From NCBI GenBank assembly GCA_044892505.1, contig CM097882.1, positions 283,030,001 through 283,094,000 on the forward strand: a DNA stretch of 64,000 bases, given 5' to 3'. This document shows positions 2 through 49,134 of the stretch, piece by piece (positions within the stretch are counted from its first letter, which is position 1; each line of letters starts with the position of its first letter). The translations under genes and the position numbers were made by a program. The stretch is from Schmidtea nova. Its lineage: Eukaryota. Below the pieces are notes generated by a model. It did no database searches and was not told the DNA's origin. It worked only from the letters and a program-made list of their open reading frames with translations.

Positions 2-3000
2 ATTGGATATATCTTTGTAAGTTATCGTCTTGGTTAGCGATTTTGTACACCATTCCCTAATATTCCTGAATAATGCTTCTTTTTCACTTTCGAATTTACA
101 CTCTTCTTTGTTTTTGGACATTATGATATTTCCTCTATCTAATAGCGTTAACAGTGTTTTCTGATCACAAACGAATTTTAATAGAAATCGTAATAACGCG
201 TTTTGTCCTTTGCTATATACTTCGTTTATATTTAACACCCATGTATCATTTTCGGATCTTTTCCATTTTATTAGCTTGCGTATTGTTTTGCAGTTACCGA
301 TTTTTATTGCTTCCTTTATTATATCACCTTTGATCAGTTCATCTATTTCCCAAGTGGCCTTCTCGATTATTTGTTTGAGCATTATCTGATTTGAGCTCCA
401 TATTGCGTGATTCAAGACTGTTTTGTTTTCTCTATCGCGTTCTGTCCAGTTGAAATCGGCATTTATCAAAAGGTCTATTATTGCTTTATCCGATTTGTAG
501 ATGGCTGCTACCATTAATGGTGTTTCTTGTTCGCTATTCCCAAAACCAAGGTGTTGGTTTGTTTCCTTAGCGATTTTTAGAAATTCTTTTACTCTCTCTA
601 CTTCTCCCCATTTTATGGCGTTATGTAATGCTGGTTGTCCTCCTATGTCTTCTAGTGAAAGTATTTCTGGAATCTTTTCCAGTAGTTCTGAAATGACTGG
701 TTTTGTTGGTAGTCCCCTTGCGTAATCACTAATTATCGACTGAATATCTCTTAATATATCGTCTCTGAAATGCCATTTTCCCATTATTTCTCTGGCTTTT
801 AGTACAATTTCCTTGTTTCTTTTTTCTCGTTGATTGTTCTCTGCTTCGGTGCTTTCATTGGTTGCTCTGAGCATATTCATTCTGGCTGTCTGGGATCTGG
901 TTATTATTCGTTCTTCTGGCGCTGTGGTTATTGTCTTTGGTACTTTTTTACATCTGCATGTATTAACGTATATTGGTCGTATCAATGGTCGATTAACAAG
1001 TTTTACCTTCACATTGTTTTCCTTTTTGTATATAACTTCGTAAGGGCCTTTTCCTGGTCTTTGTAGTTTTTTAACGGTTCCTGGTATTATTTCTGGGGTT
1101 TCTATCATTACCCAATCTCCGGGTTTAAGATCATTTGTTTTAACATTTTTCTTTTGATCGTGTAGGTCCTTGTAACTTTCTTGATAAAACTTTATGTTTA
1201 GTTCTGCTGTCTTCCATATCTCTTGCATTCGTTCTTTGAATTTGGTGACGTAATCATCTTCCTCCATATATTGAGACAAAGGTGGTTGATATTCAAGATC
1301 TATTGGCATATTGCATTCCCTTCCATACATTAATTGAAATGGACTCAATTTTGTTGCTGCGTGTATCGACATTCGGTATGCCATTAGACATAGCTTTATG
1401 TACTCATCCCAATCTGTTTGGTGTTTGCTTACATAATTGGATAACATTCGAATCAATGTGCCGTTAAATCTTTCCGTTTGTCCATTAGTTTGCGGATGAT
1501 ATGGTGACGTTCGTAATTTGGCTATTCTGAAGTAATTTGTTACTTCATCTAGTATTTCGCTCATAAAATTTGTTCCTTGATCTGTTAGTATTTGTTTCGG
1601 GGTTCCGTATCGACAACATATTTCCTCTACTAAAATTCTTGCTACGGTCTTTGCTTTTTGATCCGGCATCGCAAATGCTTCAGGGAATTTAGTCAAATAA
1701 TCCGTTATTACCAATATATATTGATTCCCGTTTAAACTTTCTGGCAATGGTCCTATTACATCCATCGCAATGGTAGTCATTGGTTCCGCTGGTATTGGCA
1801 TGGGTTTTAAGGGATTTTTCCATTTCTTCCCACTATCCTTTCTTGTGGCACAAGTTAAACAGTTCTTTATCCATTCCTTTACGTCTTCGTCCATTGTTGG
1901 CCAATAATATTTTTGTCTCATGCGATTTAATGTTTTCTTATCGGACATGTGTCCTCCCAACTTTCCGTCATGGTATTGAGTTATTATCTCTTTTCGTCTA
2001 TTACCTGGCAGACACATTAATCGTTTCTCTCCATCTCGTATTAATAACCATCCTTTTTCTATTGTGTATCGATGTTGGTATTTCCTCATGTGTTCCTTTA
2101 ACTCTGCATTGTCTTTGAATACATCCATATTTCGTGAGCTTAGGAATTCTATGATGGGTCTTAGTTCTTTATCCTCTTGCTGATCTTTCTTTAACTCACT
2201 GAAATCCAAATCCTCTGCTATCATTATGCATATTCTTTGCACTTCTGGGTCTGTTAGTTCTGGAAACGTTAATCTTGACATGCAATCTGCGTTGGCATTC
2301 GCTTTTCCTGATTTGAATTTTATATCTGGTGAATATTCTTGTAATTGCATCGCCCATCTCATTAATCTGCTGGATGTTTCCTTATGTTGTCCTAGCCATA
2401 CAAGTGGTTGATGGTCTGTGGTTATGCATATGACGTGTCCCCATAATAGATATTTGAAGTGTTTTATTGCTAATATTATTGCCAATGCTTCTCTTTCCGT
2501 TACTGAATAATTCTTCTCGTGTTTCTTGAATGTTCTGCTATAATATCCGATTACCCGCTCTTTTCCCTCGTCATCATATTGTCCTAACACTGCTCCTGCT
2601 GCATATCCACTTGCGTCGGTTGCGAGTAAAAATGGCTTTTTGAAGTCCGGGTGAACCAATATTGGTGCAGTTATTAGCTTATCTCTCAATGTTTCAAAGG
2701 CTGTTTGTTGTTCGCTTCCCCATATGAACGATACGTCTTTCTTTACTAGCTCCTGGATTGGTTTTGCAATCCCTGCGTAATCCTTTATGAATTTTCTATA
2801 GTAACCGCATAATCCGAGAAATTCTTGGATCTGCGTTATCGTCTTTGGTACTGGACATTCTTTTACTTTATCAATGTTTCTGGGATCTGGTTCCTTTCCT
2901 TTTGCGGACACAATATGTCCTAAGAATGTCACTTTCTCCTTTGCCCAATCGCATTTCGATGGTTTGAGCTTGAGTTTCCATTGTCTCAATCTAACAAATA

Positions 3001-6000
3001 CATCTCTGATATCTTGGATGTGTTGTTCAAATGTGCTTGAGTAGATCAGTAGGTCGTCAATGTAAACCATGCATTGTTTTATGCCGTGGGTAACGAAATT
3101 CATACATCTTTGAAATGATGCTGGCGCATTGGTTAGTCCGAATGGCATTTTCCTAAATTGGTACAAGTCTCTTCCGATAGTGAAAGCAGTTTTCTCTTTG
3201 TCTTCCTCCTTCATTTTAATTTGCCAGTATCCGCTTTTCAAATCTAATGATGTAAAGTATGCCGCTCCTTGTAATGTCAATAACATCTCGTTGATGTCTG
3301 GTAATGGGTATGTATCCCTTTTTGTAACTGTATTTAATCTCCGATAATCAATACAAAATCGTTGTGTTCCGTCTTTCTTTTTCACCATTACAACTGGGAA
3401 TTGCCACGGTGAGCAGCTTGGTTCAATTACTTCTGCGTCTAGCATTTTCTGTACCTCTGCTTCTGCTACTGATTTTTGCGCTTCAGCTAACTTGTATGGT
3501 CTTAAAGCAATCGGCGTTTCGTCTGTTAGTGGAATCGTATGTAGTGTGACGTCACATGTCCCTAGATCTAAATCGGATGCCGCGAATATGTCTTTATATT
3601 CTATCAGTAATCTTTCTAGCTGTTTCTTTTGATCCTCATTCAATAGTTGGCTATCAATGTTCCAAGTGGGTTCTTCCTCTTTTACTCCTTCTTTTATTGG
3701 TATTTCGATATCTATCATTGGAGTTAGTTTACCTAATCTTTCATTTTCATAAATTATTTTATCCTCTTCATCGAAATTTACTACATTTATTGGGATTTCT
3801 CCGTTGTCATTCGCACTCACTAATCCCCTTGCCATTGGCAACGACTTTCTCTTTTCAAATCTTTTACTGGGTTCAAAGATCATGTCACCTTCTATTGTAG
3901 GATCTATTTTTACGAAACATATTTTCTCTCTCCGTGCTGGTACGATTATTTGTTTCGAACTTGTTACTTTTGCTTCTATTGCGCATATCTGTCCTGTCCT
4001 ATCCTTCAATCTCATTGTTCCGAGGTCAATAACTATTTCTTTAAATAATGCTGGCATTAAATCTGTGCCTATAATGCATGGTACGCTTAGTGCTGGTATT
4101 ACTGCTACGTACGTTTCGATTTCCGTGTTTTGATGTTTTATCTTTACCCACCATCTTCCGGCAACTTCTACTACTTCTTTACTGCATGCTATTACGTGAA
4201 CGTTGGTTCTCTCGATATCCCGTCTTTGTTCTTGTGGTATCCATTTTATATCTATTGCTGAGATATTTGCTCCTGTATCGATCATCGCTTCTATTTCCCT
4301 TCCGTTAATTTCGATTGTTGTAGTTAATACTGGACCGGTGTTTGATGACATTACTGCAATTGTATGTGAGTCTCCTTGCGGATCTACGCTTCTGCACCGT
4401 CTCGTTCTATAGTCTTCTGGTATCATAGGATATATGTTTGTCATCGGCATCATTTGCATTGTATTTTGTCTCATCCCTGGTGTTGGTTCTTGGTACATGG
4501 TTGGTGGGGGTGCGTAACACTTCCACATTTCCGCTGGATTCTTTTCGACATACTGTGGTACTTGATTTTTAAATACTTGACCTCCTTCGTTATCATCATC
4601 ATCGTCGTCACTGGAATCGTCTTGGGTTCTGTACCCTTTCATTCTTTCCCATAGTCCTTTTCTCTCTTTCTTTAGTTGTTGTCTTGCTTGCTCGTTATTC
4701 ATTATCTTTTTAAATTTTCGTCCCACCTCTTCATCGGTTCCTTTCATTTTTGCCAGTATTTTTAGGAGTCTCTTTATTCGGTGAATATCTTTTGAATGAC
4801 CGTGTAATACCATTGTTTTAGCCAAAAATGGTAAGAATCCTACCACCAATTTCCAATTTACTTTCTTTTCTCTTTTATAGATGTCAAAACAGGCTAACAT
4901 TTGCGTTATTATTACCCGTATTATTTGTATAATTAGTATAACACCAAGTATTCCTGCCATCATTTGTCCAAATATTAAAAATCTTCCCCACATCGCTTTC
5001 ATCATGTTTTCCGTTGCCTTCTTAAAGTGGGCTGGTGACAATAATAATTCGTAATTTGGTCCACTTTGGTAATTTGTTCCTCCTGTTATTGTTACAATAC
5101 TGGATAACACCGCTTCTCGTCTTGCCGGAAATAGTATGTTTTGTCTTGCTGCTTCTAAATCCTTTGCACTATAGAATCCCATATTGCTTACATCTACGTC
5201 TTTAAATTTTCGTCCTTTTGATAGTTGCATTAATTCAAATTCTCTTGGTGCTGGTACCTCTGTTCTTGACGGAAACATAACCCAATTTCCGTCTGGTTTT
5301 TGGTATAGTGGTCCATATGCGTTGCTACAATTGAAAGGGTTTGGTTCGAAACTTACTGGATTTATGATTCTTGTCACTGGTTGTACATATCTTACTTTCC
5401 CTTTATATTCGATTTCTAGTTCGTTAGTACACTGACCTGGTTGTAGTTTTGTCATTGTCGCTACCTTCGCATTTGTCTTTTTACATATGTATACGTACAT
5501 GACCTCTCCGACTACTCTTCCAAAATGACCTTCTCTTAATGGTAATAATGGCATTGCACTATCCGGGTTTGTGATTGCTACTGCTAATTTTGTCTTTAAT
5601 ATTTCCCTATTTAATATGCAATCGTTGTTTATTAAATCGTAATACACTTTTTGTAGTGACGCTTGTCCTCTATGGAATAGAAAATCCATTTTATTGTTCA
5701 TGTAAAGGTGTAATTTAACATCGTTCGTGTGTACTTTGCGTTTCGCACTAGGTACTTCTTGTTTTGATACAAAAATGCCGGGGTAGTTGGTTTCCAACAT
5801 GGCTACTCCGCATTTCAAGGCTGTTTTTCCTTTTACAAACCTCATTCCGATATCTGCATCTGAGGTAATTAGTACCGTTGGTGTATTTCTCATTTTAATT
5901 TGTTTTTCTTGTGTTCGGGTTTCAATCTTTTTCTCTCCCCGTACTGTGTCTTGAAGTATTTTTCCTCTTGCTGCCTCGTCTTCTTCTTCCTCTTGGAAGG

Positions 6001-9000
6001 TTTTCCCTTGTATCTCATCGAATTCTGCTTCCTTTAACAGTTGTAGTTGACATTCCTTCCCTCGTATCTGGTAGGTTAGGGTTGACATACCAGTCTGACA
6101 AGTGTTTGACTCGATTTTGCACATAGGTAGAGTTTTCATTTCTCCCGTCGTTGGATCGAAGAATGCCTCGTACGTTTTTAGTTCCACTGTATACGTATCT
6201 ATTACCACTAGGTTTGTTGCTGCTACTCCGAATATTGGATATGTTGCTCCTTGGCAGTACCCTTCTCCTCCCGTAATAGCTCCTGCTACATAATATGTTT
6301 GTTGCAATATCACTCCCGTTTTTCCTCTTATCTTTACTCTATCTCTAGTCTCTACTTCTCCATGTTTAAATAATTTTTCACAGTCTTCTCCTTGCAGCAT
6401 TACCGATTCTCTTTCCGTTCCTGGCATCACGATTGCTGAATAATGGCGGTGCCCACAATAAAAAGCAAATCTGGTTTTATAAACTTTGCATTCTCTGACC
6501 ATTGTTCTTATCAGTTCAGCTTCCTGATATACGTGGTATAATTGTCTCTTTTTTAATGTTTTTAGCTCCGTTGGGGTTGCGTCTTTACATTGTTCTGTCC
6601 CTCGTAATGAGTATTTTTCACCTAATGCCATTTGATCACAATCGAATACTTCAAATGCTGTTGCTCCGTCAGTACTAATCATCCATATTAATATCATCAT
6701 AATGATAGAACTCAGGTTTAGTGATGATTTCCCGTTTCCTGTTCCCGACTTTTCCTTTTCCAATTCTCCCAATATCTCTTCGAATTTCTTTTTCATATTT
6801 TTGGCTTGGTTTTTCTTTTGGTTCGTTTTTGTGAATGTTTCCCATCCTCCTTTACTGATGATGTACGGTTCTATTTCTTTCTCTATAATTTTGGCTGTAT
6901 TCTTTATATGTCTTTCAAGTGCTGTGGGTTTCAGTCGACCTCTACTCAGTGTCAGCAGATTGTAGATGGTGTATGCCATAGCTATTAAATATTTGTTATC
7001 CGTCTCTGCTCCTTCCGTTACCTTCTTTATCAACATCGTGGTTCCTTGCCAATCTAGGTGGTTTGACCTTGTCTTCTCTTTTATTAATTCTGGTAGGATT
7101 GGTGCGATGGCGCTATGCAGTGATTTCGCCCTTTCGCTTATTTCATTTATTCTCCACCATTTCTTTAATTCTGGATCGATTATTGCCAGTATTTCCATTA
7201 ACATCTTTGATATCCATTCCTCGCCTTGGTATGTTTGTGTTGTTTCTTTTTCTTTCGTTTCGGCTATTTTATTTAGTTTCTTTAAACACAAATCCCATTG
7301 ATCCCGTCTTTTTTCCTCTCTTGATTTTATAACTACATTTGCTGGATCCATCTTGGGTCTACCTCTAGGTCGTTTATCCATTGTCGTGCCCGTTTCTACT
7401 AATCTTGTTTCTCGTCCAGTTTCTTCTGTGACGTCTCTTGGTTCATTGGCTCTTTCTTCTAACCATCTTTCCATTTCTTGTGTGAATTGTACGTTTTCTA
7501 CATTTGCCCTCCTTGCTTCCTCTTCTGCTATTTCATTTACTTCTTCTATGATTATTTCTTGTTCGACTTCATCTTCGGTGTTGGTTACCGGTATTGCTGT
7601 TGGTAATTCTTGAATTCTTTCGAAAATATTATCATCTTTCTCTTTTGTTAGCTCTATTAACTCCTCTAACATATCATCGCTATCTGTAAAAATTTCGTCT
7701 TCATCGTATGGTTCCGGTGGTGTTCTTTCTCTTGTCTCTCTTGGTGTTGTTCTAGTTTGTTCTGAGCTTGTTCCTGGAGTCATTACCGATTTCATTGGGC
7801 TCGGCGTACTCATACTTCCTTTTGGTTTCTTTTCCTCTTTCAATTTCAATGGTTGGCCTGCTATTGCTGCCACTGTCAATGTATTTGCGATATCTAATTG
7901 CGCTGGCGTTATTCCAATTTCCAAGCTGTTATCTAATGATCGTCCTTGGTGTTGTAAATGGAATGGTGGTTCATATCTCAATTTCTTTTTAATGTCTCGA
8001 ACTTTCTCCGCTATCCCTACCCAAAACTCTTCCTTTTCTTGGTTCGGATATACTATTCTTAGGTGTACTTTCTGTGGCGATTCCTGCGAGAATTCTTGGT
8101 TTCTCCATTTTTTAATTACGTGATCCAATTGTTCTGGACACCACTCGTTAACTCTTTTGTATTCGGCGATTGCTTTTGCTACTTTACGCAAGCATGTTAT
8201 GTCTTCTCCATTAACTACGAAAAAATCTGCGAGACCTTTTACTACTTTTCTCTTGCCGTGCGCATTGGTTTTTAATATTTCGACAAATTCCTCTGTTTTT
8301 TGTTTCTCTCTTTCCAACCACATGGTTGCCGTTTCTGGTCCGTCTATATCAGCTGGCATGGCTTTTCTTGTTACCATACAAACCCTTCCCGTTTCCGGTT
8401 TGTGATCGTCTTCTATGCCTATTTCGTATTCCTCTTCGTATTCGCCTGCTTTTGGTTCCCAACATTTTCCTCGTTCGTTCCACCGTTTTTCTACAGGTGT
8501 TCGTAATCGTCTGTTGAGATTGAGTTCTTCTAATACATCTTCCCATTCTGGCCAAATCCGCCAATTTCGATAAATGTCTACTATTTGTTGTAATTTATGC
8601 ACAACTTCTTTTTGTCGTTCCCGTTCTCTTTTCTCATCCTTAGCCGTTTCTCTTGGTGTATCGTCCATTCTGATAACGTGGATGGTTTGGTGATTATCCC
8701 ATATACCAATTTTATATAGCCGTCTTTCATCGTGATCCCATAATACATGTTCGTTGTATTTCATGATTATGTCATCTTCCCATTCTTCTTCTGGTTCTCT
8801 TTGTAATAGTGTCTCGTTGATGACATTTACTAATTCTTTTATGGTACAATCTGCTACCACTTCAATTTCTTTGGTATCCTCATTAGGTAACTCTACTGCA
8901 ATTTTCAGATCTGTTATTTTCCCTTGTCTGAACATTGCTTTTCCCATTTTGGCAATTACTTTTCCGTATGAGATCTGTGACCATCTCGTGTGACTTGTGT

Positions 9001-11701
9001 CACGTATGCACTCGATACATCGTTTCAACTTTTTGTATTCGCTTCTCATTAACTCCTTTCTATGTTTTTTGATTTGTGGGATGATTTGTTCTATCATGGA
9101 ATTTAGATTTCCTCGTAAGATTCGTCCTTTCTCATATTCTAACCGTGGTTTTATCTTCTTCTCGAAACACGTATTTGCTTCCTTTGCTACTTCTTGTAGG
9201 TTCTCTTCTCTCTTATCATCGCATATCGATAATGTTGTCACCTCTCCTGGCCATATGCCTGTTTCTATCAAATGCGTCCTTTTCTTCACTAGTCCATTCT
9301 GTGAATAGAGGAATTTGTTTTTATATGAACTCCCTAATCTATCCTCTACCCATTGGTAAATATCTTCCGTGAGTGGAGTTTTGATCCAAATCCTTGGCAA
9401 ACATGTTTTTATCTCTATTAGGATTATATATTCATGGAGTGGTTCTTTTAATAATTTTCCTAGGTATTGGCTTAGTGTTTCTACTTCCCGGCCTGGTAAC
9501 CACTCTTTATAGTTCATTTGTAATATCGCTCTCATGAATTTCCGATAGTGTTTCTTGTCGATGAACTCCTCATTATATATTACTTCTAGCGCGTTATCTA
9601 ATAATTTCTGGATCTCGTCCTCTTTTACTTGAATAGTTTCTGGCGTCTTTACTACTTCTATCTTTTTGTCTTCAATTTCCGGTTCGTTTAGCATATCTCC
9701 GGCTAGACTACTGACGTCACTATCCTCTTCGTCATCTGAAAAATTCTTTGCCTGGCCTCTCAACATGTTAATGTGTTTTATCTGGTTGATTTCACTTGGT
9801 GTATTTTCCGTTGATCTTGTTTCACTTTTAATAGCTTTTTGTGTTGATTCACTCTTGTCGTCTACTACTTCGACCTTTCTCAATTTTCGTTCTAACTCGT
9901 CTATTTCTCTCAACCGTCTTCGTATCATTTTCCCTTTAAATATTCGACTGATTCGTGTTTCGTGACGCACTGGCGATGGGATTCCTTCTGGTTCTATTTC
10001 CTTGATTACCATCACATTTCTTTTTGTCTCTACTACTCCCATGTTTTCCCATGTATCCGTTAGTTTCAATTTTACTTCTGGTGCACCTTCTATTTTTAGG
10101 AATGCTTCTCTGGGCAGTTTCGTTACTCCTGGAGCCATTTCATTCACTTTATTGAACAATATTTCTACTTCTTCCTTTATGTTATATTGGAATCGAAACA
10201 CGTGCTTGTTTGGCAAAATTACCATCATTCCTCTTTTCCCGAGTTTCCTTTTCTCTTCTTGGTTCCCTTCTTTTTCTACTTCCTTTTCTGTTTCTTTTTC
10301 TGCTTCTTCGTCTTCTTGTATTATCTCTTTTCGGCCTTCGTTGTTGGTTGGATTCGAGTTTGTTGGATTTATTTCTGGTACAGTCTCTTTCTCGTGGGTA
10401 TTTGTTTGATTGGTTGCTCTCATCATATTAATTCTTAGAGGTTGTCGTTCTCTTTCTTGCTGTTTTTGTTCCTCTTCTCTTTGTATTCTTGCCCATTCCT
10501 GAGCATGTCGTGCTTGACTTTCCCGATTCAATCGTTCGTTTTCGCTTTCTATTTTTCTCATCATATTGATTTGTTGTTGACCTGTTTGCGGATTTCCTCT
10601 GTTTGTATTGTTTATCAGCTCCGTCAATCTTTGAACCTCTTGCATTAAATGTATCTCTTTAGTGGTATTTTTATTTTGGTTATTATTATTACTATTTGGT
10701 TGGTTTCCGTATTCCGGTTGGTTTCCATTATTTGGCTGATTTCCATAATTCTGTCGGTTTCCACCAGTTGGTTGGTTTCCATAGTTTTGTCGGTTTCCGG
10801 TATTCTGCCAATTTCCTCGTTGATTGCTTCTTTGTCCGCAATTTCTTGATAGGTGTCCAGGTCGTCCACAATTAAAACAGGTTATTGTGTAACATCTGCT
10901 CTCTGAATGCCCTTTTACTCCACATTTTCCACAATTCAAGTTCTGATAACATTCTTGTTGCCAATGTCCCAATTTCCCACATGTTTTGCATTGTTTCGTT
11001 GGTCCTTGGGGGTTGTAATTGTTTTGATTTCCGTAATTTGATACTTTATTCCCTTCATTCCTTCGTTGCGGTGGTGGTCGGTTTAATTGTTGTGAATTTG
11101 GGATGTGGTTATTCAGGTTCACTTCTTGTTCGTTTTGTGCTGTATCCATAGCTAAATAGATTCTACCATCATTTCCTATCATGTGTAGTTCAAATCTATT
11201 AGCTGTTTCTAGTGCTTGGTCGATGGTTTTACAACCTTGGCATCCAACTTGCGCTCTTATGTCGGGTCTTCTTAATCCTCCCACAAAGATAGCTGCCATT
11301 AACTCCTCATTTATTGGACTGTCTTGATTGAAAATCAACTTTGCTAACTTTTTTAATTCGCTTGCATATACCGCATTCGATTCATTTATCTTTTGTTTCC
11401 TCATTGAGAATTCCGTGAATGCCTCATTCAATACTTTGTTTATTCCAAAGGTTTGTTGGAAAAAGTCCTTTATCGCTGACCAACTTGTAGGTGGATTAGT
11501 TCCATTTTTTGCTTCCAAATATAGATCTAATGCGCTATCTTTCAAATATAGCTGAATTCTGCTTACAGTTGTTTCTGGTTTCCACTTGCATACTTCCACG
11601 AATATGCCAAATTCCTTTAAGAAAGTTTCCAGTTTACTCGCATCTCCATTAAACGGTTCTCCGGAAAATTTGTCTTTTATCTCTTCTCTGGGTTCGCTCA
11701 T
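2..11701 (-). CDS. Single Gag-Ubl-Bcl2-Env-PR-RT-RH-IN-ankyrin polyprotein, at least 3900 aa, open at the window edge
   Basis: Anchor codons all share one frame (lowest codon coordinate = 2 mod 3): ATG 11699-11701, CCHC 10865, Ubl 8885 and 8063, GGW 6842, FYCG 6452, DTG 4277, YIDD 3053, GGH 1949, ankyrin 623. No ORF ending in this frame is listed in the track, consistent with no stop before position 1. The frame is open upstream to a TAA at 12161-12163. Confidence 0.9.
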   Translation of the reverse strand, partial: MSEPREEIKDKFSGEPFNGDASKLETFLKEFGIFVEVCKWKPETTVSRIQLYLKDSALDLYLEAKNGTNPPTSWSAIKDFFQQTFGINKVLNEAFTEFSMRKQKINESNAVYASELKKLAKLIFNQDSPINEELMAAIFVGGLRRPDIRAQVGCQGCKTIDQALETANRFELHMIGNDGRIYLAMDTAQNEQEVNLNNHIPNSQQLNRPPPQRRNEGNKVSNYGNQNNYNPQGPTKQCKTCGKLGHWQQECYQNLNCGKCGVKGHSESRCYTITCFNCGRPGHLSRNCGQRSNQRGNWQNTGNRQNYGNQPTGGNRQNYGNQPNNGNQPEYGNQPNSNNNNQNKNTTKEIHLMQEVQRLTELINNTNRGNPQTGQQQINMMRKIESENERLNRESQARHAQEWARIQREEEQKQQERERQPLRINMMRATNQTNTHEKETVPEINPTNSNPTNNEGRKEIIQEDEEAEKETEKEVEKEGNQEEKRKLGKRGMMVILPNKHVFRFQYNIKEEVEILFNKVNEMAPGVTKLPREAFLKIEGAPEVKLKLTDTWENMGVVETKRNVMVIKEIEPEGIPSPVRHETRISRIFKGKMIRRRLREIDELERKLRKVEVVDDKSESTQKAIKSETRSTENTPSEINQIKHINMLRGQAKNFSDDEEDSDVSSLAGDMLNEPEIEDKKIEVVKTPETIQVKEDEIQKLLDNALEVIYNEEFIDKKHYRKFMRAILQMNYKEWLPGREVETLSQYLGKLLKEPLHEYIILIEIKTCLPRIWIKTPLTEDIYQWVEDRLGSSYKNKFLYSQNGLVKKRTHLIETGIWPGEVTTLSICDDKREENLQEVAKEANTCFEKKIKPRLEYEKGRILRGNLNSMIEQIIPQIKKHRKELMRSEYKKLKRCIECIRDTSHTRWSQISYGKVIAKMGKAMFRQGKITDLKIAVELPNEDTKEIEVVADCTIKELVNVINETLLQREPEEEWEDDIIMKYNEHVLWDHDERRLYKIGIWDNHQTIHVIRMDDTPRETAKDEKRERERQKEVVHKLQQIVDIYRNWRIWPEWEDVLEELNLNRRLRTPVEKRWNERGKCWEPKAGEYEEEYEIGIEDDHKPETGRVCMVTRKAMPADIDGPETATMWLEREKQKTEEFVEILKTNAHGKRKVVKGLADFFVVNGEDITCLRKVAKAIAEYKRVNEWCPEQLDHVIKKWRNQEFSQESPQKVHLRIVYPNQEKEEFWVGIAEKVRDIKKKLRYEPPFHLQHQGRSLDNSLEIGITPAQLDIANTLTVAAIAGQPLKLKEEKKPKGSMSTPSPMKSVMTPGTSSEQTRTTPRETRERTPPEPYDEDEIFTDSDDMLEELIELTKEKDDNIFERIQELPTAIPVTNTEDEVEQEIIIEEVNEIAEEEARRANVENVQFTQEMERWLEERANEPRDVTEETGRETRLVETGTTMDKRPRGRPKMDPANVVIKSREEKRRDQWDLCLKKLNKIAETKEKETTQTYQGEEWISKMLMEILAIIDPELKKWWRINEISERAKSLHSAIAPILPELIKEKTRSNHLDWQGTTMLIKKVTEGAETDNKYLIAMAYTIYNLLTLSRGRLKPTALERHIKNTAKIIEKEIEPYIISKGGWETFTKTNQKKNQAKNMKKKFEEILGELEKEKSGTGNGKSSLNLSSIIMMILIWMISTDGATAFEVFDCDQMALGEKYSLRGTEQCKDATPTELKTLKKRQLYHVYQEAELIRTMVRECKVYKTRFAFYCGHRHYSAIVMPGTERESVMLQGEDCEKLFKHGEVETRDRVKIRGKTGVILQQTYYVAGAITGGEGYCQGATYPIFGVAATNLVVIDTYTVELKTYEAFFDPTTGEMKTLPMCKIESNTCQTGMSTLTYQIRGKECQLQLLKEAEFDEIQGKTFQEEEEDEAARGKILQDTVRGEKKIETRTQEKQIKMRNTPTVLITSDADIGMRFVKGKTALKCGVAMLETNYPGIFVSKQEVPSAKRKVHTNDVKLHLYMNNKMDFLFHRGQASLQKVYYDLINNDCILNREILKTKLAVAITNPDSAMPLLPLREGHFGRVVGEVMYVYICKKTNAKVATMTKLQPGQCTNELEIEYKGKVRYVQPVTRIINPVSFEPNPFNCSNAYGPLYQKPDGNWVMFPSRTEVPAPREFELMQLSKGRKFKDVDVSNMGFYSAKDLEAARQNILFPARREAVLSSIVTITGGTNYQSGPNYELLLSPAHFKKATENMMKAMWGRFLIFGQMMAGILGVILIIQIIRVIITQMLACFDIYKREKKVNWKLVVGFLPFLAKTMVLHGHSKDIHRIKRLLKILAKMKGTDEEVGRKFKKIMNNEQARQQLKKERKGLWERMKGYRTQDDSSDDDDDDNEGGQVFKNQVPQYVEKNPAEMWKCYAPPPTMYQEPTPGMRQNTMQMMPMTNIYPMIPEDYRTRRCRSVDPQGDSHTIAVMSSNTGPVLTTTIEINGREIEAMIDTGANISAIDIKWIPQEQRRDIERTNVHVIACSKEVVEVAGRWWVKIKHQNTEIETYVAVIPALSVPCIIGTDLMPALFKEIVIDLGTMRLKDRTGQICAIEAKVTSSKQIIVPARREKICFVKIDPTIEGDMIFEPSKRFEKRKSLPMARGLVSANDNGEIPINVVNFDEEDKIIYENERLGKLTPMIDIEIPIKEGVKEEEPTWNIDSQLLNEDQKKQLERLLIEYKDIFAASDLDLGTCDVTLHTIPLTDETPIALRPYKLAEAQKSVAEAEVQKMLDAEVIEPSCSPWQFPVVMVKKKDGTQRFCIDYRRLNTVTKRDTYPLPDINEMLLTLQGAAYFTSLDLKSGYWQIKMKEEDKEKTAFTIGRDLYQFRKMPFGLTNAPASFQRCMNFVTHGIKQCMVYIDDLLIYSSTFEQHIQDIRDVFVRLRQWKLKLKPSKCDWAKEKVTFLGHIVSAKGKEPDPRNIDKVKECPVPKTITQIQEFLGLCGYYRKFIKDYAGIAKPIQELVKKDVSFIWGSEQQTAFETLRDKLITAPILVHPDFKKPFLLATDASGYAAGAVLGQYDDEGKERVIGYYSRTFKKHEKNYSVTEREALAIILAIKHFKYLLWGHVICITTDHQPLVWLGQHKETSSRLMRWAMQLQEYSPDIKFKSGKANANADCMSRLTFPELTDPEVQRICIMIAEDLDFSELKKDQQEDKELRPIIEFLSSRNMDVFKDNAELKEHMRKYQHRYTIEKGWLLIRDGEKRLMCLPGNRRKEIITQYHDGKLGGHMSDKKTLNRMRQKYYWPTMDEDVKEWIKNCLTCATRKDSGKKWKNPLKPMPIPAEPMTTIAMDVIGPLPESLNGNQYILVITDYLTKFPEAFAMPDQKAKTVARILVEEICCRYGTPKQILTDQGTNFMSEILDEVTNYFRIAKLRTSPYHPQTNGQTERFNGTLIRMLSNYVSKHQTDWDEYIKLCLMAYRMSIHAATKLSPFQLMYGRECNMPIDLEYQPPLSQYMEEDDYVTKFKERMQEIWKTAELNIKFYQESYKDLHDQKKNVKTNDLKPGDWVMIETPEIIPGTVKKLQRPGKGPYEVIYKKENNVKVKLVNRPLIRPIYVNTCRCKKVPKTITTAPEERIITRSQTARMNMLRATNESTEAENNQREKRNKEIVLKAREIMGKWHFRDDILRDIQSIISDYARGLPTKPVISELLEKIPEILSLEDIGGQPALHNAIKWGEVERVKEFLKIAKETNQHLGFGNSEQETPLMVAAIYKSDKAIIDLLINADFNWTERDRENKTVLNHAIWSSNQIMLKQIIEKATWEIDELIKGDIIKEAIKIGNCKTIRKLIKWKRSENDTWVLNINEVYSKGQNALLRFLLKFVCDQKTLLTLLDRGNIIMSKNKEECKFESEKEALFRNIREWCTKSLTKTITYKDISN
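250..650 (-). other. Ankyrin-repeat region fused downstream of integrase (element 1)
   Basis: GQPALHNAIKWGEVREVKEFLK, EQETPLMVAAIYKSDKAIIDLLINADFNWTERD and ENKTVLNHAIWSSNQIMLKQII match the ankyrin TPLHxA...V.xLL pattern at about 33-aa spacing. Confidence 0.8.
1000..2000 (-). other. Integrase domain (element 1)
   Basis: YHDGKLGGH...CLTC zinc motif, AMDVIGPLP, LTDQGTNF, PYHPQTNGQTERFN, and C-terminal GKGPYEV. Confidence 0.97.
2290..3560 (-). other. Reverse transcriptase and RNase H (element 1)
   Basis: RFCIDYRRLN, LDLKSGYWQI, MPFGLTNAPASFQR, VYIDDLLI, FLGLCGYYRKFI, LATDASGYAAGAVL, YSVTEREALA, TDHQPL. Confidence 0.98.
3990..4330 (-). other. Retroviral-type aspartic protease (element 1)
   Basis: IEINGREIEAMIDTGANISAI ... 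CIIGTDLM. Confidence 0.95.
4800..6720 (-). other. Envelope glycoprotein, chuvirus-G / herpes gB-like (class III fusogen-like), element 1
   Basis: Hydrophobic signal SIIMMILIWMISTDGATA, then a Cys-rich ectodomain of about 550 aa (FEVFDC, YHVYQE, VRECKV..FYCGHRHY, NDCILNREILK..AITNP, GRVVGEVMYVYICK), then TM FLIFGQMMAGILGVILIIQII. Family assignment is from recalled motifs. Confidence 0.75.
6830..7300 (-). other. Bcl-2-like domain (element 1)
   Basis: BH2-like TAKIIEKEIEPYIISKGGWETF, preceded by BH1-like IKKVTEGAETDNKYLIAMAYTIY. It occupies the same position as a clearer copy in element 2. Confidence 0.6.
7860..10228 (-). other. Cluster of 2-4 ubiquitin-like/UBX-like beta-grasp domains (element 1)
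   Basis: About 8670-8910: LKIAVELPNEDTKEIEVVADCTIKEL...MKYNEHVLWD..RRLYKIGIWD..TIHVI. About 7860-8070: KVHLRIVYPNQEKEEFWVGIAEKVRDIKKKL..FHLQHQGRSLD. Weaker candidates at about 9225-9430 (LIETGIWPGEVTTL) and 10005-10228 (MMVILPNKHVFRF..LKLTDTWENMGV). Confidence 0.55.
10830..11701 (-). other. Gag (capsid-like region plus three CCHC zinc knuckles), element 1
   Basis: PFNGDASKLETFLKEF...YLKDSALDLY, then CKTCGKLGHWQQEC, CGKCGVKGHSESRC, CFNCGRPGHLSRNC. Confidence 0.93.
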
Positions 11702-12677
11702 TTCAATTCCGCTGTCTGTAGTTATTTTACTTTCGTTTCCTCTTGTTTCTAGTTCACTGTTAGGTTCGTCACTCGAATTTCGGTCGATCTCAGTTTCTTT
11801 TGCTGATTCGTTATCTGATGCTTTACTATCGTTATCGGTATCGTCACTTTCTGTTTCTTGTTCTACTTCGTCTTCTATTTCTTCTATATAATCGTTGTTG
11901 GTTTTGTCGACTTCTATTTCACTTATTGGGTTTCTCTCGGGTTCTGCTTGATTTTCTTTGTTGCTTGAACTGTTGCTTGTTACTGATAATTTATCGTTTT
12001 CGATAATCGACTTTTGTATTATTATCTGCCTTGCTTTACTTCCTTTTGGGCCTTTCTGATTATTATTCTTGGTAGCTTTATTCTTTTCTGCTGGTTTTAT
12101 TATGACACTCTTTTCTCCTTTTCTCAACGGAATTACTTTTGTATACTCAATTTTCCTGTCTTATCGTGTTCCGATTCTTTTCTTCCTTAGTTGATTGGTT
12201 TGGTTTGATTGATTTATCTAAAATACAAATGTCACTTCAACGATACTCTATTGTTATCGTTGCGCTTTTATTCCCTTTTTACGGGACTTCTCATTACTGG
12301 GTTTCTATTATTTTTCCCCATTCCCAGATTCCCCTTTATTTAAGTCTATTTAAATTATCTATATACTAGTCACAATTATCTATTTAGTCATAACAATTAT
12401 CTATCGGTTATTAAAATACATCAATTATTTTTCCCGCGGTCTCCCAATTTATTTGTCGTTCGAACGCTCTAATTCCCTGAGTCATTTGACTCGATTATTA
12501 TTTTATCATCTCTTTATCTTTCTCTCTGCTAGCCTCTAATTATTAATTCTGCCGGTCTTTCCGGTCAGCTCCTATTTCTCAATTCTACTTGCATGCATTA
12601 TTTTAGGTCGCATAATCAGCTTTACTCGCATTTCTCTATTATCGGTGCGCACTATTCTCATTATCGTCGACGATCAC

Positions 12678-13794: not shown

Positions 13795-14256
13795 TTATAA
13801 ATAAACTACAATTTTATCAGCTACAGAGAAATTGCACATGGGGCACTCATCACACTTATTCGCACAGTTTTTACAGAATCGAAAATGTCCACATGGTAAA
13901 AACATTATTTGGATTTCACTGTTTTCGCATATGTAACATTGTTTATATTGTTTTGCTGCCTCGACCCCTTGCGACATCCATCGGTTATATGTTAGGCTTA
14001 ACTGCTGTTCTATATGTCGGCATCTGATATTCAACTCGGCATCCTCTAATCGTGCTTTGTACCATTTATATCGCGTATTTATATCGAGTTTATTTACTTT
14101 CTCTATGATTTTTATTAACTCAGTTGTTTCCTCAGTTTGTGTCGTAGGTTCCTCATATTCGGATGCTCTTATTCGGGTTATTTTTTCGCAGACTGTCTCA
14201 AATGTTTCGTTCTCGGTGTTGAAAAATTCCTCGATTTCTTTCAGTTTTTCCTCCAT
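13795..14256 (-). CDS. IAP/MDM2-type C-terminal RING-HC protein (153 aa, no BIR domain) between PBS and gag
   Basis: CYICENSEIQIMFLPCGHFRFCKNCANKCDECPMCNFSVADKIVVYL-stop: C3HC4 spacing with the short hydrophobic tail typical of IAP RINGs; coiled-coil-like N-terminus. Confidence 0.85.
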   Translation of the reverse strand: MEEKLKEIEEFFNTENETFETVCEKITRIRASEYEEPTTQTEETTELIKIIEKVNKLDINTRYKWYKARLEDAELNIRCRHIEQQLSLTYNRWMSQGVEAAKQYKQCYICENSEIQIMFLPCGHFRFCKNCANKCDECPMCNFSVADKIVVYL

Positions 14257-14562
14257 TTCCTAGATAATTTATTTAATTACTGTGTTAATATTATTCGAAA
14301 AGTAGTACTGTGTTTCGTTTCTGACAGTTTTATAGCCTCCCCCCGTGTTTCGGTAAAATGTCGTCCCGACCTGTTATTTATGAATGCATTTGTTTAATTT
14401 ATCTACTAATTTGTTTTAATTCTCTGTTTGTAATTATCTATTTCCACGCAACTCACTCTTATCTCGATTACTCTTTCGGTTACTATTTCTACTCACAAAA
14501 TTCTGATTTTAAATTTCTCTGTTGTCATTGGGTTCACATTTTCCGCATAAAAACAAAGTTGA

Positions 14563-14580: not shown

Positions 14581-15114
14581 AATTTATGCTGGGATTATGG
14601 GTGGGTTTTAAGTAATTCAAATAAACAATTAATCATACTAGGGATTCCGCGCCCATAACCATACATAACATGACTACTACACGCGTATGCCCTTGACTAT
14701 TCCCTACTAGTCAAGTTGGTACTGCATACGGTGGTGGAAAAATGATGGGCAGGTGAGCTTTGTCGCCAAAACTACTCCCCATTTATCTTCCCTCGGGTTC
14801 TTGCTGCCGATAGAAGGTCTTACGCATTTACATTCTATGGATGTTCGTTTCTTACTGCATTTTATACTACATATACTTATGATCTATCACACGCTTTTCC
14901 CAATGACGCTCTCCCTCGCTGTTCTACAAGCCGACGAAAACTCTCGCTGCTAAGCAACGGTCGGTGTAGGTTTTACGATGCGATTTTCAGTTCTACGAAT
15001 TACTTATGTAGTCTTATTTTATTTAGTGAAATCACAAGATGAGAGAAAAAATTTACCCAGTAATACTTTTATTGAAATAATAAAGACAGGTTGTTATTTT
15101 ACATTGAGGTTTTC

Positions 15115-15699
15115 CTATTCAAACTCCAGGCTAATCTCCTGGATTAACTCTGCTTCGGTTAAGGAATTCAGGTGGTGGATTTGTTCGTCCAGGCGCTTTG
15201 CAAATTCTCGGCGACGACGGCGCTGTCGCGATCCCATTCGATGTTTTCGAAGCTGTTGGTTTATGACCGGTGCTGACGCTATTATTCTCGGGGGATCACT
15301 GAGAAAAATGGGCAAATCTTCCGTTGTAAGAGTGGGTGCCATGATGATATCATCTTCTGTCCCGCAAGCGACATCTTGGTGAGTGCATGGTATCCAGCGC
15401 TGAGCCGTGATCGGCCGGATTAGCGCTCGCAATTCGGAGTCGATGTAACTTCTTGTTACTGCGTTCAGGCAATTTCGGAGTTCTCGCTGGACGGCATCCA
15501 GTTCCAATTTGGTTGTAGCCAATGCTTCCTGCACTCGCTCGAGTTTTTTCGACTGGTCCTTCATCTGTTCGGGCGAGAACCACTTCGCTTTCAATTCATC
15601 ATTGGCGACCGTGAGTCGCTTGATCTGTCGCTGCTGGTCCCTCAGCTTTCTCTCTTGAATTTGTCCCATGATTTTCTTCGAATTTTCTGAAGCCGGCAT
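15115..15699 (-). CDS. Unknown 194-aa coiled-coil protein with Arg-rich motif, inside the candidate LTR
   Basis: ATG-started ORF, GC-richer than its flanks, heptad-like N-half, RQRRRRR motif, and AATAAA on the minus strand at about 15068-15073. Confidence 0.55.
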   Translation of the reverse strand: MPASENSKKIMGQIQERKLRDQQRQIKRLTVANDELKAKWFSPEQMKDQSKKLERVQEALATTKLELDAVQRELRNCLNAVTRSYIDSELRALIRPITAQRWIPCTHQDVACGTEDDIIMAPTLTTEDLPIFLSDPPRIIASAPVINQQLRKHRMGSRQRRRRREFAKRLDEQIHHLNSLTEAELIQEISLEFE

Positions 15700-16015
15700 G
15701 TTGTCTGAAGATTATAACGATAAATCCACTGGAGGGCCTATCAATAATGTTATTTTATTTAAACAACTATTATTATTATTACACGAGATGTATATTAATG
15801 TTTTTAATTGTTGAGTTCTCTACAAAATTATTTAACTATCTAATCATTGAAGACTCAAAAGGTTTATTGAACTAATTTTATATTAATAAATGAATTTCCT
15901 AATGACTATAACAACTACAATACTAAATCTACATGACAACACTATTAACAAAACGAACATTTCAGAATTCTTTAAAACATTTATTTAATTTAAAAACAGG
16001 CGGCCATTGGTTCAG

Positions 16016-16492
16016 CTATTCATCCTCGGTCATTTTTCCTCGATACGAAAATACCGAGCGGATCTGCAAATTTGTATGGATTCCTGTGCTATTGGACGAG
16101 GCCTGCTGGAAACGGATTCTCTCAGCTTCTCGGAGGGGTCGGATGGCTGTATTGAACTTGAACCCCAATTCCTTGAAGGTAGAGGCTGGAATGAACCCCC
16201 AATAAATGACACATCTCGGGAATCCACCTTTGTCCAACATCATGATGAACCAGGCGGCGTGCCATGATTCGTATTCCTCGTCTGGAATGATTGGCCAACT
16301 AGCGCATCCCCGGTACCATACGTGATGCCGTGGATGGTCCCATACTGTAAATGGACAGGCGGTTTCGAGCTCTCGGCGCCATGCCCACATCTTTTGGTGA
16401 ATTTGCTGTAAAATCTCGAAAGGAGCCGGCTTTAATGGGCTAACTCGGGCTCGTTCTTGTCGTTTTTTGATAGTGTATCTATGCTTAGCCAT
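16016..16492 (-). CDS. Unknown 158-aa Trp/His-rich protein, inside the candidate LTR
   Basis: ATG-started ORF, GC-richer than its flanks, same strand as the element; no family recognised. Confidence 0.5.
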   Translation of the reverse strand: MAKHRYTIKKRQERARVSPLKPAPFEILQQIHQKMWAWRRELETACPFTVWDHPRHHVWYRGCASWPIIPDEEYESWHAAWFIMMLDKGGFPRCVIYWGFIPASTFKELGFKFNTAIRPLREAERIRFQQASSNSTGIHTNLQIRSVFSYRGKMTEDE

Positions 16493-18105
16493 GATTCCAA
16501 AATGATGCTGAATTTTATAATAGTTACAATTTACATCAATAATTAATCATAGTAAATGTTATCTCTCATCGTGATTCCCTTATTATTTGCCTTCCCCTTA
16601 GACCTTAGCTGAAATCAAGAAAAAACTGTTGTTTGTTACAGTATACATTACTCTCGTATCTACTTAGATTTATCTGTTTACGATCAAGTTGATAGACGAA
16701 AAATTGATGATTTGTCTGCTTGGATTTTCAAAATATTGGTACCTCAAAACGGAAACTCTCTCCCGTCATGTATCCCTAGTTTATTCGAAAAAACGCTCTT
16801 TTGTACCAAACGCGGTCGACATAATTTTCCTAAGGTTTATTAGACGTTTATTAAACAGCGGCGCTGTGGTGAGGGTGAAAAATTGTGCCTCCTCCCGGTT
16901 AACAACTTCTTTCATATCTTTAAGCTTTATCAAAAAATTCTCGTCCCCTCTGTAACTAAAATGATCAGAAAATAATTTCCCGGATTTGTTGGGTGTCCCA
17001 TGTGCAAGTCTCAACCACTACTAATAAAATTGTGCTTTACTATTTATTACTTTACCGTGTGTGGAGCCCTCGAGCACCACGCCACGGACGGACACCTTGG
17101 GAACCTAAAGCTCCCAACGGCGCAAAATTAATATGATCATTATATATTTTAATGTTGAGTCTAATCACAATAACGTTTAATTCATATAACAAATTTCAAC
17201 ACATGAATGCATAAACACATAAATAATTAGATCAATAGATAAATGACAAAGCAAATGACACAATCATGAATAAAATAATACAGAAACCAAAATACCTAAT
17301 TCGTCTGGGTTTGCTTCGATCGGTTCGTCTAGAATTCAAAGTCTATTTGATTAGTGAGCTAAATTTTACACTCTCAACTGACGTTGTAAGATTAGGTATT
17401 AAGTCTGTTTTATCCAAAGTCTGATCAGTATTTATACTGATCAGTCTGATCTAGACTGACCAATCGGATTTGGCCGATTTCATGGTGGGTTTTAATTATT
17501 GTTTTTGATTCTAATTAATTTTTATTTTTTAGATTGTATTCTTCCTTGGAGGTCCGGGTTTCAAAAACAATTATTCAATAACAAGTACTTTTATTTGGTT
17601 TTAATTATTATTATTTGTATTTTATTTGTTTTTAGATGTCTCCTGGGCCCGTTAATATCTATAAATTCATTTATTTTTATTTATAGCTTGTACTTAGTTA
17701 TTCTATATTTTTACTATATTATTCCTTTCTTTTAATAAATAAATATTCCCCTTTTTACCTTATTTTTCTCTTTTTTGTTTTAATTAATCTACTTTTATTT
17801 CATTTTTTTCTCTATTTGGCTGGCCCAACACAAATATCTTGATAAAATGTTAAATAACCTCAATATTAAATTACATTCATTGATTAAAACAAAAAAAAAC
17901 AGATTGATAAATAATAGGATTACAGACATATGGAGATAAGTTATAAGAAAATTAATATAATTAATACGGTATACATGTCAACCTGATATAGATCATTACA
18001 TTTTTAAACTCAAGGATGCCGGAAAACGGGATGACACTAAATATAGTAATTGTTATTTTGAACTGTTAAAAGTAGAAACTTTGATTAAAAACAAATATAA
18101 TTTAC

Positions 18106-18449
18106 GGTAAGTGCCGGTTTTGATACTATTTTGAATTTTTAATACTATTTTGAATTTTTAATAANNNNNNNNNNNNNNNNNNNNNNNNNNNNNNNNNNNN
18201 NNNNNNNNNNNNNNNNNNNNNNNNNNNNNNNNNNNNNNNNNNNNNNNNNNNNNNNNNNNNNNNNNNNNNNNNNNNNNNNNNNNNNNNNNNNNNNNNNNNN
18301 NNNNNNNNNNNNNNNNNNNNNNNNNNNNNNNNNNNNNNNNNNNNNNNNNNNNNNNNNNNNNNNNNNNNNNNNNNNNNNNNNNNNNNNNNNNNNNNNAAAA
18401 TTCAAAATAGTATTAAAAATTCAAAATAGTATCAAAACCGGCACTTACC
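18106..18449. mobile_element. Small TIR element (MITE-like) spanning an N gap
   Basis: ggtaagtgccggttttgatactattttgaatttttaatactattttgaatttt at 18106 is the reverse complement of the sequence from 18397 to 18449; the interior is N. Confidence 0.6.
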
Positions 18450-23004: not shown

Positions 23005-23150
23005 TACTTTACTTAATAATAATATTATTATTAATAATTAATATCAATAATTTCCATAATGGATGACTATAGATCAAAATTTCTATAGTCATCCATTATG
23101 GGAATTATTGATATTAATTATTAATAATAATAATATTATTAAGTAAAGTA
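23005..23150. repeat. Near-perfect fold-back palindrome (69-bp arms, 8-nt loop)
   Basis: ...ccataatggatgactataga-tcaaaatt-tctatagtcatccattatgg...; the arms extend to tactttactt / aagtaaagta with about 2 mismatches. Confidence 0.92.
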
Positions 23151-23290
23151 AAACGCCATTTAAACAACAATCGAACAATATATTTCAAGAGACTCCCTGC
23201 CAGTATCAGGTATCCATAAAACTAAGCTAAATTAATGCTAAACAAACAATTATAAAAAATAGTTAGATAAGGATATTAACTTTTTTATTT

Positions 23291-47729: not shown

Positions 47730-49134
47730 TTAATTGAATTTTAACTCAAAACTTTCTTCACCATGGCAATATTGGACAATTGTTCCTTTTCGCACATACG
47801 TCTTCCCTGCATATGTTATCGAATTTTCTATTTGCAAATTTGAACCCACTTTTCTTTTCCTAGTTTCTTTGGCTGTTGAACCCTTTATAAGTGTTGACTT
47901 TGCTCTTCCACTAATTGAGCTTGTAAATATTGCCAAACTTTCTTCGATGGGCTCTAGACTAGTTTCCTCTGCAAAATTCAATTGTATTTCAATTTCCATT
48001 ATTGATGGTTCTTCTATTGTCAGATCCACTGTTGTTGTCATTTCCGATGTGCTCTGTGTTGCTCGTAAATTTCTGTATTCCTCCAGTGAATATATTTTTG
48101 AGGGCTGTTTCCTGGGAATCATCACATCATCGATCCATTGACTCTCCACTTTCAAATAAACTTTTCTAATGCTTTTCACATCTTCCAACGCAGTGTGGAT
48201 GCTTGTTTGTGTTTTTCCCGCATAATTCTTCAGTGATTGTTTTTAACTTAAACCATTCTCCTTTTCGGCTTACCTTCATTGATTTTAACACTTGCGCTGC
48301 TGCTAAATCTCGAATGCCATATACTTTATTGATCCAAATTCCAAGATTATTCAATTCCGCTTGGAGATCATGACCAATCAGTATTTTCCCTATGGTCAAC
48401 CTCTGAATATCTTTCATCTCCTGATATTGATCTGCCTGATTTCTACTGGCCACTTCCGTTATTCCGTGGATTTTGGAATTAAAATGTCTTATTTTCCCTC
48501 TTGGTGTAATGTATGTATTTTTTATAATTTTTCCATAATAATTTAGGATTGCGATTGACAACGGAATCATTTTTCCGCTTTCGGAGCTTCCATATTCCGC
48601 ATCGATAAACAAAATTCGATTACGGATTTCTTCTATATCCATCTCCTTTCTAACAAATGAGAGCTTCCTTTTTAACATTTCATCTGAAATTGCCATCAAA
48701 TTCTCATCATTAGCTTCTGTCGGATGTGTACTTGGAATTTCTCCAGCTTCATTTTCAATTCTGGTTTCGATAACCATTATGGCATCCTCGTTTGCGGCTC
48801 GCAGCAAATTGAACATTATTTCCCTCTGCAGTTTCCACGTAGTAAATTTTTCCAATTCCTTCCGAATCTGATTCCTTTCGTTCAACATTTCTACCGTGCC
48901 TTTTATTATGTGGAGGTAATATTGTTCTTTTCTTGCTAACTGCATTTCCTCTAATAACTTCATTTTGTTGTTTCTGTGCACTTTTAGAATTTGTATTTTC
49001 ATTCTTCTGTCATCACTTCGAAGGTAGTTGGGAATTTGCAGATTGTTGTTGATCTGGAATTTTTGTCCGGCATGGCTTCTGCTGAGTCTGGCGTAACTGT
49101 CGTATACCGATCTTGGCCATTGTAATTGTTCCAT
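47730..49134 (-). pseudogene. REX4/ISG20-like DEDDh 3'-5' exonuclease, frameshifted near 48190-48215
   Basis: ILFIDAEYG (ExoI), KIHGIT, ILIGHDLQAEL (ExoII), IRDLA, FKLKTITEEL, then in the adjacent frame IHTALEDVKSIRKVY (ExoIII HxxxxD). Confidence 0.85.

Follow-up and report, generated by a model that had tools for sequence, protein, structure and literature searches.

The closest described systems are the Burro/GYPSM1 elements of planarians, giant Ty3/gypsy elements of more than 30 kb whose single giant open reading frame (ORF) encodes a Gag with CCHC knuckles, a mononegavirus-like Env placed between gag and pol, and ankyrins, with a MATH domain that is part of the polyprotein in some and of an accessory ORF in others. 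One ubiquitin-like motif has been named in them, a Ubi2/SUMO-like motif that precedes a BCL2-like motif (PMC6431247). A passage on Burro1 gives an anti-apoptotic role to its B-IAP, second-hand and cited from Lee et al. 2026 (PMC13465017), and an excerpt of another paper reports Burro1 transcripts on PIWI loss (PMC8532177). Burro elements are abundant in planarian genomes, and one of them is reported, on the strength of such passages, to keep stem cells from apoptosis. Half of their polyprotein still lacks annotation. Ubiquitin folds are also built into other proteins. The SLD of Rad60/NIP45, Ubl1-5 of USP7, OASL and the Ubl of coronavirus nsp3 function as integral type II ubiquitin-like domains, and the inserts of the pestivirus BVDV are near-authentic ubiquitins cut after GG.

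The window, i.e. the whole stretch of 64,000 nucleotides analysed here, carries on its minus strand an element (element 1) that is a Burro-type giant Ty3/gypsy element, as judged by comparing its architecture with the published description; on this account its host is probably a planarian. Its main features are the following.

2 to 12160, minus strand: polyprotein frame in the order Gag, insert, Env, protease, reverse transcriptase (RT), RNase H, integrase, ankyrin; 4,053 codons in the window, 5,140 from stop to stop
10838 to 11701, minus strand: Gag capsid-like region and CCHC zinc knuckles (zf-CCHC E 7.5e-6; capsid by eye and by homology to sister families)
4871 to 6655, minus strand: Monjiviricetes (chuvirus-like) fusion glycoprotein, in frame, between gag and pol (PF24664 E 4.5e-69)
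14587 to 17830, minus strand: 5' LTR of 3,244 bp, same sequence as the 3' LTR in L037/L036, with a 4-bp target-site duplication

The frame is free of stops and exits the window, and its length followed in the genome is 5,140 codons. Pfam matches along it come in the order zinc knuckles, Monjiviricetes fusion glycoprotein, protease, RT, RNase H, integrase and ankyrins. As in Burro/GYPSM1, a single ORF holds Gag, Env, protease, RT, RNase H and integrase, Env lies between gag and pol, a ubiquitin/SUMO-like domain precedes a BCL2-like domain that precedes Env, ankyrins are present, and MATH is found in ORF1 or in an accessory ORF (PMC6431247). The second element of that study likewise has an ORF1 of 5,140 aa without MATH. 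The TRAF/MATH accessory ORF, compared by published description, lies downstream of the polyprotein here (L036) and upstream in PMC6431247. Element 1 measures about 28.3 kb. Its two 3,244-bp LTRs are identical and flanked by the target-site duplication, so its insertion is recent. The region U2-U3 described below has 953 candidate copies in the genome; of the 142 scored, at 85-100% identity, 130 are free of stops by manual count. Each of the segments U1, U2, U3 and U4 is full length and uninterrupted in all 30 near-identical loci.

Several further ORFs accompany element 1. Between LTR and gag, a 154-codon ORF (window 13795-14259, minus strand) ends in an IAP-type RING (PF13920 E 2.3e-11), and no BIR was seen in it. 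Two ORFs inside the LTR (15115-15711 and 16016-16546, minus strand; 198 and 176 codons) had no match in the Pfam search. Downstream, a TRAF-type ORF (L036:4785-6191, minus strand) carries RING, zinc fingers and MATH by eye, and the polyprotein tail (L036:6741-9998, minus strand) holds extra ankyrin-like repeats, three cysteine-containing fibronectin-like repeats and a hydrophobic helix.

An initial annotation, made from the sequence alone, had placed four ubiquitin-like domains between Gag and Env. All four segments are indeed found on the minus strand within the one stop-free frame, where it had located them:

10001 to 10234, minus strand: U1, conserved segment whose pattern is ubiquitin-like but whose fold is unproven, without a helical partner (pLDDT 28-50; fails the leave-one-out test; dN/dS 0.10-0.19)
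9221 to 9439, minus strand: U2, predicted ubiquitin-like (beta-grasp) domain (Z 10.0, rmsd 2.0 to ISG15/SUMO2/ubiquitin; leave-one-out 13.2 bits)
8666 to 8920, minus strand: U3, predicted ubiquitin-like (beta-grasp) domain (pLDDT 59-85; Z 8.6, rmsd 2.5 over 73 to the Dsk2 UBL; Pfam Ubiquitin_4 E 0.053; leave-one-out 9.6 bits)
7859 to 8080, minus strand: U4, predicted ubiquitin-like domain (pLDDT 68-86; Z 11.2, rmsd 1.6 over 70; leave-one-out 15.0 bits)

The insert was modelled with AlphaFold2 in two parts, aa 635-1200 from an alignment of 12 rows (mean pLDDT 46.9) and aa 1270-1800 from one of 17 rows (mean pLDDT 62.7). The first model shows a beta-grasp topology in U2 (pLDDT 49-74) and in U3, and the second a four-helix segment (pLDDT 79-89), then a beta-grasp U4, then a helical domain. 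When the models were compared with solved ubiquitin-like domains by VIA-align, U2, U3 and U4 gave the Z scores listed above, the rmsd for U2 being over 71-73; Foldseek results were concordant. In a leave-one-out test, each segment was scored by a profile of the other domains plus one near-canonical ubiquitin. The scores of U2, U3 and U4 were reached by none of 167 other windows, and among 500 shuffles of each by 0, 1 and 0, respectively. The module profile, searched against solved proteins, had ISG15 as its best match (E 1e-4), 37 of the 40 matches listed being ubiquitin-like by name; a second search with the family profile again matched solved ubiquitin-like proteins, with a best E of 2e-4. 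Two of 16 module sequences matched Rad60-SLD, at E 0.0038 in the better case. Single sequences gave little: U3 had no PDB match at E 10, and the Pfam search of U1, U2 and U4 returned nothing ubiquitin-like. These data support three segments, U2, U3 and U4, as predicted ubiquitin-fold domains.

The fourth segment did not follow. U1 scored 0.1 bits in the leave-one-out test; 92 of the 167 other windows and 262 of its 500 shuffles did as well or better. Its PDB search gave 5 matches, none of them ubiquitin-like. Compared as a profile with all the other segments together, it reached P 0.01 over 33 columns; in pairwise comparisons of shallow profiles, neither U1 nor U2 nor U4 resembled U3 significantly. 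The alignment available for U1 is shallow (five rows of low diversity) and its model, of low confidence, shows the elements in the order expected of the fold, strand-strand-helix-helix-strand, so we retain a ubiquitin fold for U1 as possible, if somewhat improbable.

The segments had also been described as separated by acidic linkers. This is mostly wrong, since predicted helical segments precede U2, U3 and U4, and acidic stretches are mainly found in the interval from U1 to the first helical segment and after U4. The remainder of the insert comprises:

9758 to 9772, minus strand: recurring short motif, candidate protease site, between U1 and H2 (further copies start at 10654, 10570, 10432 and 880)
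9440 to 9625, minus strand: H2, predicted helical segment before U2, of low confidence (pLDDT 39-49)
8921 to 9208, minus strand: H3, predicted helical segment before U3, of low confidence (pLDDT 32-62)
8336 to 8653, minus strand: spacer; a TRAF-type MATH domain occupies the equivalent place in L086/L088
8081 to 8335, minus strand: H4, four-helix segment before U4, confidently predicted; weak TFIIS-N-like lead
7352 to 7375, minus strand: motif that we take to be AT-hook-like (also in L038, L086 and L056)
6818 to 7321, minus strand: predicted Bcl-2-like domain (Z 13.1, rmsd 2.9 over 138 to Bfl-1; Pfam PF00452 E 0.099)
6656 to 6727, minus strand: hydrophobic helix before Env (hydropathy peak over 1.6 in 6 of 7 frames scanned)

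The ten best VIA-align rows for the domain at 6818 to 7321 belong to the Bcl-2 family throughout; to the predicted Bcl-2 fold are added a BH2-like end and a C-terminal hydrophobic anchor. The hydrophobic helix that follows is likely to be both the signal peptide of Env and the tail anchor of the upstream product. The short motif occurs at aa 503, 531, 577, 797 and 3761, with one more copy within U3; it flanks U1 and precedes the ankyrins. Its pattern was picked after the motifs had been seen, which inflates the shuffle count; as a cleavage site it is a candidate. In the Gag-Env interval of one- and two-unit families the motif is absent, save for one match inside a helical segment of L041. Neither the helical partners, nor the Bcl-2 fold downstream, nor the published Burro ubiquitin-like domain had been mentioned in the initial annotation.

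Relatives were gathered within the genome by Pfam searches for Bcl-2, BIR and MATH, and examples were taken. A single helical-plus-ubiquitin-like unit is present in 18 loci (L054-L071, which by eye form two families and include one partial locus). Two units are present in element 2 of the window and in L041 and L042, which are related to it, and element 1, L038-L040, L043, L090 and L086 have three. The units of element 2 are as follows.

57711 to 58205, minus strand: element 2, first helical and ubiquitin-like unit (Pfam ubiquitin E 0.039)
57192 to 57701, minus strand: element 2, second helical and ubiquitin-like unit (by alignment only)
56517 to 57029, minus strand: element 2, Bcl-2-like domain, ahead of an Env of the same type (PF00452 E 0.001)

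In both L086 and L088, a MATH domain follows the U3 unit and U1 is absent. L086 runs on into H4-U4, which is the published Burro1 order; U4 therefore corresponds in position to the Ubi2/SUMO-like motif published as lying between MATH and BCL-2. When L086 was left out of the module profile, its three units were still found (E 1.1e-4, 3.6e-12 and 2.8e-7). The profile made from one- and two-unit families alone matched M3 and M4 weakly, with 1.5 and 4.8 bits, and 1 of 100 shuffles scored higher. Outside the genome, no homologue was found when longer proteins were searched with the whole insert, 1.84 billion representatives with U2-U4, and proteins of 77-326 aa with the module alignment; nor did these searches find a host protein with a helical-plus-ubiquitin unit.

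One ubiquitin/SUMO-like domain at the position of the insert was thus already known (PMC6431247), compared with the three supported here, each with a helical partner, and with one to three units by family. The three supported domains, the repeated helical-plus-ubiquitin unit and its variable number are new: in the literature searched (Grohme 2018, Jurka 2007, Lee 2026 and supplements lay outside it), neither several ubiquitin-like domains nor a helical partner was found in Burro. The ubiquitin-like domain in itself is no news and the gain is moderate; the repeated unit ties the insert to the TRAF and IAP cargo of the element and, together with the Bcl-2 fold and its putative tail anchor, offers defined soluble domains for partner searches.

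We hold with moderate confidence that the three predicted ubiquitin-fold domains belong integrally to a helical-plus-ubiquitin unit that is repeated in a Burro-type Gag-Env insert, and that they would serve as docking sites or decoys for host ubiquitin/SUMO-dependent cell-death and immune signalling. The starting points are the single frame, its conservation, the absence of di-glycine, the one to three units by family and a divergence that is fast when set beside that of RT; for U2, U3, U4 and the Bcl-2 domain, the folds are predicted. We read the domains as docking or decoy modules because of their company. This consists of the Bcl-2 fold, the RING-zinc finger-MATH ORF in L036, the RING ORF at 13795-14259, the reported role of the Burro1 IAP, and a derivative family (L084:2806-5997, L082:3504-6509 and L080:7161-9998) that has H4-U4 attached to protease and ankyrins, with TRAF and BIR-RING ORFs after them. 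Burro1 B-IAP is alike in being an element-borne regulator of cell death, element 1 having a RING ORF before gag and other families BIR-RING ORFs; it differs in that the cited work, as far as the passage goes, is on an IAP gene (PMC13465017). The putative decoy or adaptor role that the initial annotation had raised in general terms is in that form the best reading.

In such a scheme, cleavage would take place near aa 797 by the element protease and in front of Env by signal peptidase, and the product released would be of about 1,040 aa, comprising the three units, the AT-hook-like motif and the Bcl-2 fold. This product would face the cytosol with the Env signal helix as its anchor, an arrangement that recalls the tail anchor of cellular Bcl-2 proteins. 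It may then act beside the TRAF and IAP-type RING products of the element in favour of host cell survival.

Divergence between families bears on this reading in both directions. Compared with L086/L087, the identity is 91% for RT and 81% for integrase, whereas it is 41% for U2, 36% for U3, 39% for H4, 52% for U4 and 33% for the Bcl-2 domain. This contrast fits host-facing cargo, or an exchange of the gag-env block. In Gag (47%), Env (51%) and protease (55%), too, identity falls well below that of RT, and recombination of the whole block may account for the difference. The low confidence of H2 and H3 and the lack of significant mutual resemblance among the four segments, in pairwise comparisons of shallow profiles, also count against docking or decoy modules.

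Long Env leaders link capsid to envelope, or recruit budding machinery, in some retroviruses. The insert could likewise be a structural cytoplasmic leader of Env, connecting capsid and envelope or recruiting ESCRT. Indeed, in all families examined it stands in frame between the nucleocapsid and the Env signal helix and keeps at least one unit. However, the number of units varies from one to three, a MATH domain can sit within the array, and H4-U4 is kept in the derivative family, in whose examined stretches (L080, L082 and L084) no match to the RT or Env of element 1 was seen. We consider an Env leader unlikely, while ranking it first among the alternatives.

The helical partners suggest another role. 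If they were TFIIS N-terminal-type domains, they could form, together with the AT-hook-like motif, a nuclear chromatin tether on the model of the LEDGF architecture, or a decoy for transcription-elongation factors. The helical-segment profile matches the N-terminal domain of MED26 over its full length (E 0.021), hhalign of the helical segments to host TFIIS-N exons gave P 0.0026 and 0.0058 with the tryptophan of the last helix of H4 in register, and the AT-hook-like motif is found in 4 of 7 frames scanned. On the other hand, the MED26 match was lost with two other alignments, the best helical window of 322 was outscored in the TFIIS-N scan by three overlapping Env windows, and among the 53 matches of a PF08711 search none lies in a frame longer than 732 aa. 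Moreover, a membrane anchor is predicted for the product, whose sequence changes much faster than that of integrase. Ubiquitin and Bcl-2 rows took up the fold-match lists, in which neither the helical segments nor U1 figured. The TFIIS-N-like identity of the helical segments is a weak lead, and a nuclear tether or elongation-factor decoy is rather improbable. Equally speculative is a combined scheme in which Burro would derive a single membrane-anchored effector from the Gag-Env interval, with tandem TFIIS-N-like/ubiquitin-like units, an AT-hook and a Bcl-2 fold using the Env signal peptide as tail anchor. Units would then be gained and lost as the element competes in an arms race against host SUMO/ubiquitin and transcription-elongation factors, while a soluble pool could act as a LEDGF-like chromatin tether. 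The genome itself holds tandem arrays of TFIIS-N genes (G000:C1:216.19-216.25 Mb, C1:28.8-28.9 Mb and C2:284 Mb), one of them with more than 25 copies at a spacing of about 1.2 kb.

The type of ubiquitin-like domain can be assessed from a few positions. Modifiers that are conjugated or cleaved are defined by a C-terminal di-glycine, UBX domains, which are p97 adaptors, by an FPR loop between strands 3 and 4, and proteasome-binding UBLs of the Rad23/Dsk2 type by the Leu8-Ile44-Val70 hydrophobic patch. No GG occurs in element 1 between aa 467 and 1770, in keeping with the earlier remark that no segment ends in a clear LRGG, nor at the domain ends of the 14 rows aligned to ubiquitin, with which they share 9-21% identity; U4 ends in a single conserved glycine. 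The UBX loop FP[RK] is missing from the Gag-Env interval of all 7 frames scanned. In the sequence alignment, as distinct from the models, the Ile44 column of U2, U3 and U4 reads Y, K and Q and the Leu8 column K, P and P. As there is no GG, no FP[RK] and Y/K/Q in the Ile44 column, the domains appear to be integral, and their surfaces, judged by alignment, neither UBX-like nor Rad23-like. Integral, non-conjugatable domains, as first proposed for all four segments, are supported for the modelled U2, U3 and U4, U1 being unconfirmed; the label UBX-like does not hold. U2-U4 resemble type II ubiquitin-like domains in their beta-grasp, their tandem arrangement and the absence of di-glycine, and they differ by their low identity to ubiquitin and by the helical segment before each. 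SUMO, ISG15 and ubiquitin rows are tied in the fold matches, so that no solved subfamily stands out.

These surfaces weigh on the proposal that the domains recruit p97 (UBX-like) or the proteasome (Rad23/Dsk2-like) and so cause extraction or degradation of the insert or of a bound host factor. UBX, Dsk2 and NUB1 domains are among the fold matches, and a membrane-anchored leader could need extraction. Yet the surface motifs usual for either partner are absent, and UBX rows score no better than SUMO or ISG15. The adaptor role suggested earlier for proteasome or p97 is not supported, and we regard it as very unlikely.

Selection was estimated by comparison with L038, L043 and L090. The dN/dS values are 0.06-0.19 for U1-U4 in unsaturated comparisons and 0.13-0.31 for the linkers. 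On these ratios the whole frame is under purifying selection, linkers included, and the domains do not appear specially constrained. This is what folding or spacing modules without specific partners would show, kept for the frame and fold of the polyprotein, with canonical binding surfaces gone and the number of copies variable. Such modules would not be expected to hold 26 of 74 columns invariant across five rows, as U4 does, nor to include the best conserved part of the insert relative to L086 (U4 again), nor to persist in the derivative family, and we judge this explanation highly improbable.

Pestivirus-like processing signals, at which deubiquitinases or SUMO proteases of the host would cut, share with the array a ubiquitin fold inside a viral polyprotein, BVDV rows being among the fold matches, and find some echo in the terminal glycine of U4 and in cleavable ubiquitin fusions of another retroelement family of this genome, but divergent domains without GG, with the candidate protease motifs lying elsewhere, leave this suggestion of the initial annotation with hardly any probability.

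In that other family (L072:4747-4974, plus strand, also L073-L077), a near-canonical 76-aa ubiquitin with terminal di-glycine stands in frame directly before a Gag-like region. By analogy with the pestiviruses, this ubiquitin-Gag fusion would be a true cleavable fusion. The family is a large, BEL/Pao-like repeat family by eye, in which the ubiquitin sits behind a mosaic of host gene pieces, presumably Hsp70-like, glutathione-reductase-like and calmodulin-like. Of the best 150 ubiquitin matches, 136 score 103-109 bits, mostly in long frames; 6 loci were examined, 3 of them fully.

An origin of the array from the MATH-plus-Ubl array of USP7 was considered and set aside: a single Foldseek row at 10% identity points to it, and the MATH of the element belongs to a TRAF-type RING-zinc finger-MATH gene. 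TRAF-type MATH matches, dense and diverse and in short frames, also fill G000:C2:405-455 Mb, probably an expanded host gene family. Element 2 (window 48166-59734, minus strand) is a second Burro-type copy, split into several frames, other copies having a frame of 3,393 codons; its ORF at 48166-49137 resembles a DEDD exonuclease by eye, and the Pfam search gave no such match. Finally, near-perfect palindromes with arms of 172 nt and 70 nt are present at window positions 18106-18449, mostly masked, and 23004-23151.
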